Assembly (NCBI RefSeq): GCF_020969955.1
Contig: NZ_JAHDSX010000028.1
Location: 1-31,201, forward strand
Direction of reading: 5' to 3'
From: Allobaculum fili
GTDB lineage: Bacteria; Bacillota_I; Bacilli_A; Erysipelotrichales; Erysipelotrichaceae
Length of the DNA: 31,201 bases
Below, piece after piece: positions 8,899-9,849 of the stretch (positions within the stretch are counted from its first letter, which is position 1; each line of letters opens with the position of its first letter). Below the pieces are notes generated by a model. It saw only the letters and a list, made by a program, of their open reading frames with translations. It ran no database searches and had not been told where the DNA came from. A program made the position numbers and the translations under genes.

Positions 8899-9849
8899 AT
8901 GAAAAATAAACCGCAAGGCAGGAAGAGTTCTCTTTCTGCCTTCTTCGTATCGCTGCTGTACGGACTTTTTGCTGGATCGCTCTTTCTTTTCCTGATCGTT
9001 TTTGCCGGCGATTTTGAGATCATCTGGAAACAGGCCATATCCTCTCCGGCACTGATCGTTCCCTCGCTGACCGTGGGGGGCACGGTTTTTCTCTTTTTCC
9101 TGTTTCGAAAGCGTAAAATTCTGTCTTTTCTCATTTCGGCAGCGGGCGTGGCGGCGTTTTGCGGCTATTTCGTCTATCTGCTTCATACGCCGGTTCCGTT
9201 TATTCAGCTGATTACCGTGCGCGACTCGGCTGTCCAGCAGACGCTGCAGCAGTCCTCATCCCTCTTTGAAAACTGCGTGCAGGAAGGCAATGAACATCCG
9301 GCGGTCTATTTTGAAGTGAGCGATCAGGCATCTATGCCGGGCGACGCGGAAAAGAAGGCGATCGTGCAGATGATTCACGAACTGCCCTCCGCTCTGAAAA
9401 AGCAGGCGGCTGGAATTTATTTTCTGAGCGAAAACTCGTTCAACCAGGCGATCGAGCAGGAGACGAATATTGATGCAGCCGGTTTTTCACGTGCGTCCAA
9501 CTTCACCGCCGCCATCAAGGTGCCGGATCTGAACCGGTCGGAATACCTTACGTATTTTCGAAACGGAAGAACATGCAGTCTTTCCAGTCCGGAAAGCTTT
9601 AAGGAGACGATCGTTCACGAACTGGTCCATTTGGCGGATGTACGAACGCACGGATCGACGCTGCGCATATCCTCTTTGCCGCGCTGGAAAGAAATTTATG
9701 AGACGCAAAAAGATCTCTTCGGTGAATATGGAGCGACGAACCGCAGCGAATTTTTCGCGGAAGCCGGCGTCTACTATTTCCTGTATCCGGATTTATTAAA
9801 AGAAATGAGTCCGGCCGTATATGACTTTTTCTTCGAATATCTCGGATAG
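8899..9849 (+). CDS. Membrane-anchored ATLF-like (anthrax lethal factor / peptidase M34-like) zinc metalloprotease
   Basis: 316-aa ORF. After a KNKPQGRK N-terminus come three predicted TM helices (about aa 13-38, 51-69 and 74-96, with an RKRK loop), which places the C-terminal domain outside the cell. HELVH zinc motif (TIVHELVHLADV). About 40 aa downstream is EYGATNRSEFFAEAGVYYF, which parallels the lethal factor HEFGHAVD...YGRTNEAEFFAEAF third-ligand region. No clear SD sequence. Confidence 0.65.
   Translation: MKNKPQGRKSSLSAFFVSLLYGLFAGSLFLFLIVFAGDFEIIWKQAISSPALIVPSLTVGGTVFLFFLFRKRKILSFLISAAGVAAFCGYFVYLLHTPVPFIQLITVRDSAVQQTLQQSSSLFENCVQEGNEHPAVYFEVSDQASMPGDAEKKAIVQMIHELPSALKKQAAGIYFLSENSFNQAIEQETNIDAAGFSRASNFTAAIKVPDLNRSEYLTYFRNGRTCSLSSPESFKETIVHELVHLADVRTHGSTLRISSLPRWKEIYETQKDLFGEYGATNRSEFFAEAGVYYFLYPDLLKEMSPAVYDFFFEYLG

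Follow-up and report, generated by a model that had tools for sequence, protein, structure and literature searches.

A predicted membrane-tethered, lethal-factor-like zinc protease encoded behind rbfA in Allobaculum, with a conserved terminator-like hairpin in its first codons

We analyzed a 31,201-nucleotide (nt) stretch of the Allobaculum fili genome (the window; contig NZ_JAHDSX010000028.1, positions 1 to 31,201, forward strand), focusing on the gene at 8899–9849, which occupies the 3' end of the rimP-nusA-ylxR-ylxQ-infB-rbfA string. The explanation we favor, and consider as a whole reasonably likely, is that this gene encodes a membrane-tethered zinc protease of the ATLF superfamily and is the last gene of the rbfA string, behind a leaky hairpin. 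A three-helix N-terminal anchor would hold the protease on the outer face of the cytoplasmic membrane, where it would cut proteins or peptides near the membrane surface. The gene is most likely transcribed with the rimP…rbfA string, on a transcript ending at a terminator at 9925–9962. Transcription would first pass a hairpin and U-rich tail at 8915–8952, probably a leaky terminator or attenuator, or a stabilizer of the 3' end of the upstream message. Protease synthesis would then depend on read-through transcripts, keeping the enzyme below the level of the translation factors. Of the new findings, this covarying, terminator-like hairpin within the ORF is of greatest interest; a first-pass annotation, made from the sequence alone, had recognized the protease and not the hairpin. 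The open reading frame (ORF) is a real gene, and its product has these parts, transmembrane (TM) helices included:

8899–9849, plus strand: protease ORF, 316 codons and stop; predicted membrane-tethered ATLF-like zinc metalloprotease
8929–9186, plus strand: three TM helices, residues 11–36, 50–68 and 73–96, from three hydrophobic segments (Kyte–Doolittle) and AlphaFold2 helices
9187–9846, plus strand: putative extracytoplasmic catalytic domain, residues 97–316, with a lethal-factor-like predicted fold
9616–9630, plus strand: zinc-binding/catalytic motif HELVH, residues 240–244 (H240, E241, H244), aligned to HEFGH of lethal factor
9727–9762, plus strand: YGATNRSEFFAE, residues 277–288, aligned to YGRTNEAEFFAE of lethal factor

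H240, E241, H244, D247, Y277, E284 and E288 are unchanged across 14 relatives, and the catalytic residues are invariant in 14–20 relatives. Lethal factor uses H686, E687, H690, Y728 and E735 in its mechanism. By analogy, we infer that H240, H244 and E284 are zinc ligands, E241 the general base and Y277 the oxyanion or transition-state tyrosine. The Pfam ATLF profile (PF07737) matches the protein with 30.9 bits (cut-off 27.4), at profile positions 115–190 of 193 only, and gives the Ileibacterium orthologue 39.7 bits. The Pfam Peptidase_M90 profile (PF06167) matches residues 270–313 only, with 30.1 bits (cut-off 26.2); NCBIfam contained no family match for the protein. When a family profile built from 14 relatives was searched against PDB sequences, lethal factor (E = 5e-7) and the Pro-Pro endopeptidase PPEP-1 (E = 2.7e-6) were found over ∼75 residues, with PPEP-2, MtfA and PPEP-3 far weaker. 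The alignment places ETIVHELVHLxD onto EGFIHEFGHAVD and YGATxxxEFFAE onto YGRTNEAEFFAE, and HExxH and Y-x6-E-FFAE coincide exactly. The lethal-factor-like core (ATLF/M34) noted in the first-pass annotation is thus borne out by the above-cut-off profile match, the invariant catalytic set and the family-profile alignment, except that the spacing from HELVHLAD to EYGATN, put there at about 40 residues, is 28.

Structure prediction, which had been proposed as a check, points the same way. The full-length AlphaFold2 model has a pLDDT of 91.2 and a pTM of 0.86, and the model of the ectodomain only (residues 98–316) has a pLDDT of 92.3 and a pTM of 0.91. With the ectodomain model, the top Foldseek matches were lethal factor (TMq 0.57) and PPEP-1 and PPEP-3 (TMq 0.51–0.55, TMt 0.54–0.61, 15–21% identity; TMt 0.57–0.61 for PPEP-1), all with probability 1.0; the full-length model gave the same ranking. 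The protein shows what is expected of an ATLF protease: a score above the curated cut-off, HExxH with Y-x6-E-FFAE, and a predicted two-subdomain alpha/beta fold with an edge strand. These data support its classification as a zincin of the lethal-factor/PPEP/MtfA superfamily (ATLF, MEROPS M34/M90) with a full catalytic set. Weighing against this is that the sequence-level matches to characterized enzymes are confined to the C-terminal ∼75 residues. The family assignment is correct, and it is already present in automated annotation: at NCBI, proteins in the same 90%-identity cluster (from an uncultured Allobaculum sp., Allobaculum sp. Allo2 and A. mucilyticum) are named "anthrax toxin lethal factor-related metalloendopeptidase", and a 33%-identical relative is named "zinc-dependent peptidase". 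Literature searches turned up neither a described TM-anchored ATLF-like protease nor any account of this gene, and no experimental work on it.

Kyte–Doolittle analysis and AlphaFold2 agree on the three N-terminal TM helices that had been read from the sequence at the outset. We counted lysines and arginines in 24 members with three TM segments. Totals were 83 for the N-terminal tail, 23 for the TM1–TM2 loop, 60 for the TM2–TM3 loop and 32 for the first 15 residues after TM3. By these counts, the most likely topology is N-in/C-out with the catalytic domain outside the cell, as the first-pass annotation had it. The orientation is a prediction from a single criterion, the positive-inside rule. 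We weighed a reversed arrangement, in which a cytoplasmic, MtfA-like catalytic domain has the products of the upstream translation and ribosome-biogenesis genes as substrates or partners. The M90 match above cut-off is in keeping with it, as are M90 matches in 20 of 21 distant family members at E ≤ 0.01 (most below the Pfam cut-off) and the tight, deep linkage to rbfA described below. But the K/R distribution of a protein with three TM helices points to N-in/C-out, and several shorter relatives carry signal-peptide-like N-termini, in several cases with a lipobox-like cysteine. Furthermore, the M90 match is confined to the final 44 residues, the NCBIfam equivalog for MtfA (PRK15410) scores 13.9 against a cut-off of 400, and MtfA ranks far below lethal factor and PPEP-1 in the profile search and is not among the top 50 fold matches. 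We regard the cytoplasmic arrangement as very improbable, and membership in the MtfA family was rejected on the 44-residue match, the equivalog score and the three TM helices.

To place the favored, outward-facing protease among its relatives, we ran an exhaustive profile search and clustered the matches at 50% identity, which gave 479 clusters with E ≤ 1e-3 and 22 with E ≤ 1e-30. Among the best 89 matches, which were inspected, ∼40–50 are 300–360 aa long and have between one and three hydrophobic segments at the N-terminus. Next in similarity come proteins of ∼200 aa; in place of the anchor, several of these have a signal-peptide-like N-terminus and several a lipobox-like cysteine. The protease is, as judged from these sequences, the TM-anchored form of an unnamed extracytoplasmic branch of the ATLF superfamily. 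A three-TM tether on an ATLF-like protease is unusual. Identity is ∼20% in the anchor versus 51% in the catalytic C-subdomain; because the anchor is so much less conserved, we read it as a simple tether. A role of the TM bundle as a substrate-recognition module was set aside, given the low conservation of the anchor and the greater simplicity of a plain tether. Members of one 90%-identity cluster of relatives (P0005; L001 10001–11245) range from 314 to 443 aa and differ by a C-terminal extension of up to ∼100 aa, rich in Q, K, E and V (QVQKEQVQKED...). This extension may be a variable low-complexity tail, or may reflect stop-codon or frameshift variation between strains.

The gene neighbors of the protease in the window are as follows:

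3220–3678, plus strand: rimP
3692–5530, plus strand: nusA
5786–6046, plus strand: ylxR
6036–6380, plus strand: ylxQ-like ORF
6572–8452, plus strand: infB
8442–8864, plus strand: rbfA, matched by the RBFA profile with 116.8 bits
9925–9972, plus strand: strong intrinsic terminator, 17-bp stem and T-run (z = -4.3; 0 of 200 shuffles fold as well)
10132–15357, plus strand: giant A, 1741 aa
15662–19846, plus strand: giant B, 1394 aa

The full order is rqcH (minus strand), gmk, rimP, nusA, ylxR, ylxQ-like, infB, rbfA and the protease, followed by giant A, giant B, an ORF at 20220–20819, a thiolase gene (minus strand), bcd, etfB, etfA, hbd, crt and a CoA-transferase gene. The genes from thiolase onward form a butyrate-type acyl-CoA cluster at 21092–30315. 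Between the end of rbfA at 8864 and the protease ATG lie 34 nt, and this spacer holds no terminator, both as first described.

Gene context was compared between the window and 12 other lineages: L021–23 with L001; L002–4; L005; L006 (Allobaculum mucilyticum); L007–9 (uncultured Erysipelotrichaceae); L010 (Ileibacterium valens); L011; L012; L013/14; L017/18; L019/20; and L015/16. A second homologue search that took in distant members yielded six proteins and, from them, three more genomic contexts. The protease gene lies immediately 3' of rbfA in 12 of the 13 lineages (the window and 11 of the 12 others), the upstream gene being confirmed as RBFA. The adjacency holds down to ∼20–25% protein identity, including the distant members P0157 and P0023 and members that match the close-family profile at only 1e-36 to 1e-48. 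In ten of these lineages the gap is -20 to +34 nt. Recorded distances between the two genes are -20, -17, -17, -4, -1, 6, 15, 34 and 44 nt, plus a miscalled case of 99 nt and one case of 214 nt, and the protease gene often overlaps the rbfA stop codon. Thus, rbfA is the conserved partner of the protease, and ending the string with the protease gene is a conserved arrangement in the Allobaculum/Ileibacterium branch of Erysipelotrichaceae; the description of the gene as appended to the infB-rbfA string holds well beyond this genome. Terminator-like hairpins with T-runs, read by eye after the stop codon, also lie 3' of the gene in L002, L005 and L012. Upstream, infB and rbfA (ATG at 8442) share 11 nt, and the same overlap is present in all related loci, consistent with translational coupling along the operon.

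Several observations temper the case for co-expression. In L021 the rbfA–protease gap is 214 nt, and in the L015/16 lineage, the sole exception, the protease gene has moved away from rbfA. The conserved order may in part reflect general synteny of the whole rqcH…thiolase block rather than selection for co-expression. Moreover, the protease ATG in the window has no recognizable Shine–Dalgarno sequence, unlike those of several relatives that start inside the purine-rich end of rbfA. In the exceptional lineage (L015 5849–6829, L016 4772–5752; P0025), the protease follows a DUF1810 gene and faces a minus-strand gene of 1000 aa and a thiolase gene. In L019/20 the thiolase-bcd-etf block comes directly after the protease, giving the same backbone of rbfA, protease, thiolase (minus strand), bcd and etf as in the window, without the giants. 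Because of this shared block, we take the rqcH…etf region to be a conserved backbone of the clade.

The hairpin lies within the first codons of the protease gene, as do its homologues in relatives:

8915–8942, plus strand: stem-loop in codons 6–15, with the 5' arm at 8915–8926, loop at 8927–8930 and 3' arm at 8931–8942
8943–8952, plus strand: U-rich tail TTCTTCGTAT, also coding the Phe-rich start of TM1
L021, 9028–9060: hairpin in relative
L002, 10004–10027: hairpin in relative
L005, 467–501: hairpin in relative
L006, 8002–8028: hairpin in relative
L007, 7958–7997: hairpin in relative
L011, 3725–3754: hairpin in relative
L012, 7920–7955: hairpin in relative
L013, 5823–5851: hairpin in relative
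L017, 7039–7070: hairpin in relative

In the window, AAGGCAGGAAGA-GTTC-TCTTTCTGCCTT forms a perfect 12-bp stem (-16.5 kcal/mol), followed by TTCTTCGTAT. It begins 16 nt inside the ORF and 51 nt past the rbfA stop. The stem contains a G-U pair, which breaks an exact seed, and an exact-repeat search therefore missed it. Among 34-nt folds on the plus strand of the window, it is the eighth most stable, similar in stability to the intergenic terminators of the window; of the seven folds that exceed it, six are intergenic, just after gene ends, and one is within the minus-strand rqcH. A homologous hairpin occurs in 11 lineages (the window, L021, L002, L010, L005, L006, L007–9, L011, L012, L013 and L017). 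Relative to the rbfA stop codon it lies at -16 to +78 nt, or at +242 in L021; the loop itself contains this stop codon in L002 and L010. In each of the 11 lineages, the GC core of the stem is followed by 8 nt of which at least five are T. Both L019/20 and L015/16 lack the hairpin, and both also lack the S-A-F peptide motif encoded by it elsewhere.

The same bases encode peptide. The 5' arm specifies a K/R-rich cytoplasmic tail, the 3' arm S-A-F before TM1, and the U-rich tail the Phe/Leu start of TM1. Might the hairpin be a by-product of protein composition, with purine-rich Lys/Arg codons followed by pyrimidine-rich Ser/Phe/Leu codons and no selection on the RNA? N-in membrane proteins typically do open with K/R and then a hydrophobic stretch, and synonymous recodings still fold, at about -2 to -9 kcal/mol. 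But in all 10 lineages tested, the observed stem beats 994–1000 of 1000 synonymous recodings of the same peptide, and the observed stems exceed the recoded means in stability by 7–18 kcal/mol. Where the Ala codon varies synonymously at its third base (GCC/GCT), the G/A partner in the 5' arm varies with it, and the reading frame of the 5' arm differs between L005 (GCA GAC) and the window (GGC AGG) while the same nucleotides are kept. Because the lineages without the hairpin also lack S-A-F, the data suggest that the peptide motif is a consequence of the RNA rather than its cause. An origin in composition is thus highly unlikely.

Pairing was examined in an alignment anchored on the invariant CAG/CTG core, with the loop omitted, which replaced a MAFFT alignment that had the 5' arms out of register. 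In this alignment, 88.7% of cells pair, versus 75.1% after shuffling (0 of 500 shuffles reach the observed value) and 49–61% with slid partners. Of 15 pairs, 9 show changes on both sides, a result matched in 3 of 500 shuffles; covariation scores 0.473 versus 0.202. The two stem cores are not uniformly spaced from each other, which disfavors a fixed-spacing protein-binding site such as a DNA operator. We considered a start codon 3' of the hairpin and rejected it: the next in-frame ATG, GTG or TTG is a GTG at codon 59, in TM2, and the conserved TM1 would be lost. A separate purine/pyrimidine hairpin, AGAAGAGAAA...UUUCUCUUCU at 8840–8877, spans the rbfA stop codon; in the window, where it was evaluated, its stability does not significantly exceed that of shuffles (z = -1.56). 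At the gathering threshold, Rfam had no match anywhere in the window.

What might the hairpin do? Its layout is that of an intrinsic terminator, a G-C stem-loop with a directly adjoining U-rich tract 3' of a gene end, and on the simplest reading it is probably a terminator, an attenuator or a 3'-end stabilizer of the nusA-infB-rbfA message. The first-pass annotation had placed the first terminator at 9933, which is probably wrong in view of the terminator-like hairpin at 8915–8942. Several points speak against termination here, and against the strength of the conservation evidence. The U-tract has interruptions, and Phe/Leu codons would make this stretch U-rich in any case. A general terminator scanner flagged the L021 copy as terminator-like and did not flag the window copy. 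The hairpin is absent from L019/20, where the protease still adjoins rbfA. Finally, the core-anchored alignment was built around the stem and is biased toward structure.

Given these points, we weighed the alternative that the hairpin is selected but is no terminator, serving instead in mRNA stability or processing or in translation control, for example by pausing ribosomes and so helping them re-initiate after rbfA; or else that it is an efficient rbfA terminator, with the protease made from rare read-through only. The interrupted U-tract and the scanner result are compatible with a non-terminator role. So is the position of the hairpin, which begins 3–60 nt after the start codon, has the rbfA stop in its loop in L002 and L010, and in the window follows an ATG without a Shine–Dalgarno sequence. 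On the other hand, an A-rich 5' flank, GC core, loop of 4–7 nt and U-rich 3' flank just after the rbfA stop are the layout of an intrinsic terminator, and stems of 10–14 bp are short for RNase III. We consider these alternatives possible, if on the unlikely side; they and the favored leaky-terminator explanation are not mutually exclusive.

A more specific version of the favored explanation is that the protease ORF has come to include the terminator of the nusA-infB-rbfA operon. Some 40 nt would then have three roles: the purine-rich arm would encode the cytoplasmic tail; the pyrimidine-rich arm and U-tract would encode the S-A-F-F start of TM1; and in some lineages the rbfA C-terminus and stop would be encoded as well. 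The stem would be kept by compensatory substitutions, and protease dosage would be set by read-through at a weak, possibly NusA-sensitive terminator. We put this version forward only tentatively. If it holds, the amount of an envelope protease would be coupled to the condition of the transcription and translation apparatus.

Downstream of the protease in the window are the two giant genes. Giants A and B are paralogous (39% identity), with signal-peptide-like N-termini, and carry GDSL/SGNH esterase, LamG and sialidase-N-type lectin domains and a FIVAR-like tail that scores below the Pfam cut-off. The first-pass annotation rightly described them as giant, secreted-type proteins with PEPEP-like linkers before the C-terminal part: EPEPEPE occurs at residues 1661–1667 of A and DPEPEP at residues 1311–1316 of B, just before a ∼70-aa helical tail. 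From their domains, the giants are plausibly glycan (e.g. sialate) O-acetylesterases of a mucin degrader.

It had been proposed from the gene order that the protease and giants form a module like those of PPEPs, the protease acting as a sheddase or maturase that cuts A and B at or near the PEPEPE linkers. The predicted fold is common to the PPEPs, both giants have a short acidic Pro-rich linker before the FIVAR-like tail, and secreted proteins must all pass a membrane-proximal protease. Furthermore, the protease gene is directly followed by one for a giant GDSL protein in the three most closely related lineages (the window, L005 and L006; at least 50% identity), and giant A is 61% identical to its orthologue in the same position in L006. 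But scans of A and B found no Pro-Pro dipeptide and no LPXTG-like motif. A phmmer comparison of the protease with PPEP-1 gave E ∼0.8–1, against a family criterion of 1e-25, and hhalign aligned 71 C-terminal columns, from HExxH on (the C-terminal part of the PPEP-1 sequence used was verified against the PDB search). In addition, the strong terminator at 9925–9962 lies between the protease gene and giant A.

The wider neighborhood also argues against such a module. No giant lies 3' of the protease in the nine other lineages with visible downstream DNA. The annotation had stated that a failure of the protease and giant genes to co-occur in related genomes would count against its proposal, and this is largely what we found. 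The downstream genes are instead a major facilitator superfamily transporter (L002), GntR and ATP-binding cassette (ABC) transporter genes (L010), a small ORF and then an ABC transporter (L007), a small ORF and then thiolase (L011), an iron-containing alcohol dehydrogenase (L013), a glycosyltransferase (L017), thiolase directly (L019/20), and a small ORF and then other genes (L021). The window ORF at 20220–20819, beyond the giants, is homologous to the small ORF directly 3' of the protease in L011 (5030–5503), L021 (10756–11271) and L007 (9043–9594). In these four lineages the small ORF encodes 157–199 aa with 27–33% identity, and it had no Pfam match. Because its homologue adjoins the protease in L011, L021 and L007, and because the L019/20 backbone has no giants, we infer that the giants are a lineage-specific insertion in the Allobaculum lineage, outside the protease system. 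Allobaculum genomes are rich in secreted enzymes of 1000–2500 aa (PMC8409761), so adjacency to a giant carries little information and is probably an accident of gene order. Nothing singles out the giants as substrates, and we regard the sheddase proposal as very improbable. A plausible case of guilt by association is thereby corrected.

These data describe a membrane-tethered, housekeeping-linked ATLF branch, by prediction, in gut Erysipelotrichaceae, within a superfamily whose known members include a major toxin (lethal factor) and the adhesion-switching PPEPs. Allobaculum and Ileibacterium are mucus-associated and inflammation-linked, and the specificity of the enzyme could reveal a step in surface-protein processing. 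The embedded hairpin is an example of dual coding, with RNA structure and peptide specified by the same bases, and it may illustrate a way of lowering expression where a ribosome-biogenesis operon ends.

Compared with known systems, the protease is nearer to ATLF-like lipoproteins and secreted proteins of ∼200 aa (P0032–P0060) than to the characterized enzymes, with 75–110 bits versus ∼30 for lethal factor and PPEP-1 (the latter from a separate PDB search). These proteins share HELxHxYDF and YGATxxxEFFAE with it, but have a signal-peptide- or lipobox-like N-terminus and no three-TM anchor. Lethal factor, the best predicted-fold match, shares the HExxH…Y-x6-E-FFAE signature residue for residue. 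Yet it is a secreted toxin of 776 aa, with protective-antigen-binding and substrate-recognition domains, and is delivered into host cells, whereas the protease has 316 aa, a three-TM anchor and no accessory domains, is chromosomal and housekeeping-linked, and is ∼12–15% identical to it.

PPEP-1, -2 and -3 (EC 3.4.24.89) resemble the protease in their compact, single-domain ATLF fold of ∼200 aa (TMt 0.57–0.61, 18–21% identity), in the same Zn/Glu/Tyr set, and in extracellular action in Firmicutes, which for the protease is predicted. PPEPs are soluble secreted or wall-bound enzymes encoded beside anchored adhesins with repeated Pro-Pro sites (PMC8610288). The family is delimited by E < 1e-25 to PPEP-1 or PPEP-2 and has been found only in Clostridiales and Bacillales, not in Erysipelotrichaceae (PMC8610288). 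In PPEPs, Trp103 and Tyr113 of the S-loop, together with a diverting loop, shape a Pro-Pro-specific cleft (PMC12828418). The N-subdomain that carries these loops has no hhalign alignment to the protease, in which a segment of ∼30 aa with a beta-hairpin lies between the edge strand and HExxH in the AlphaFold2 model. Assignment to the PPEPs was rejected: similarity falls far short of the family criterion, there are three TM helices without a cleavable signal peptide, and the neighbors lack Pro-Pro and a wall anchor. By analogy, the protease, though not a PPEP, appears to share the mechanism of lethal factor and the PPEPs, that of an extracytoplasmic gluzincin. MtfA (M90, PF06167) resembles it in the C-terminal helix motif, which scores above the Pfam cut-off, but is soluble and cytoplasmic and binds the repressor Mlc, while the protease domain is predicted to lie outside the cell.

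For the hairpin, the closest parallels are the internal terminators and attenuators of ribosome-biogenesis operons, such as that of E. coli (metY-rimP-nusA-infB-rbfA-truB-rpsO-pnp), and the NusA-dependent weak terminators of Bacillus subtilis. As in those systems, a hairpin and U-rich tract after rbfA would set the level of a downstream gene. Unlike them, the hairpin lies inside the downstream ORF, where it doubles as coding sequence for the cytoplasmic tail and the first part of TM1; in L002 and L010 the C-terminus and stop codon of rbfA are encoded in it as well.

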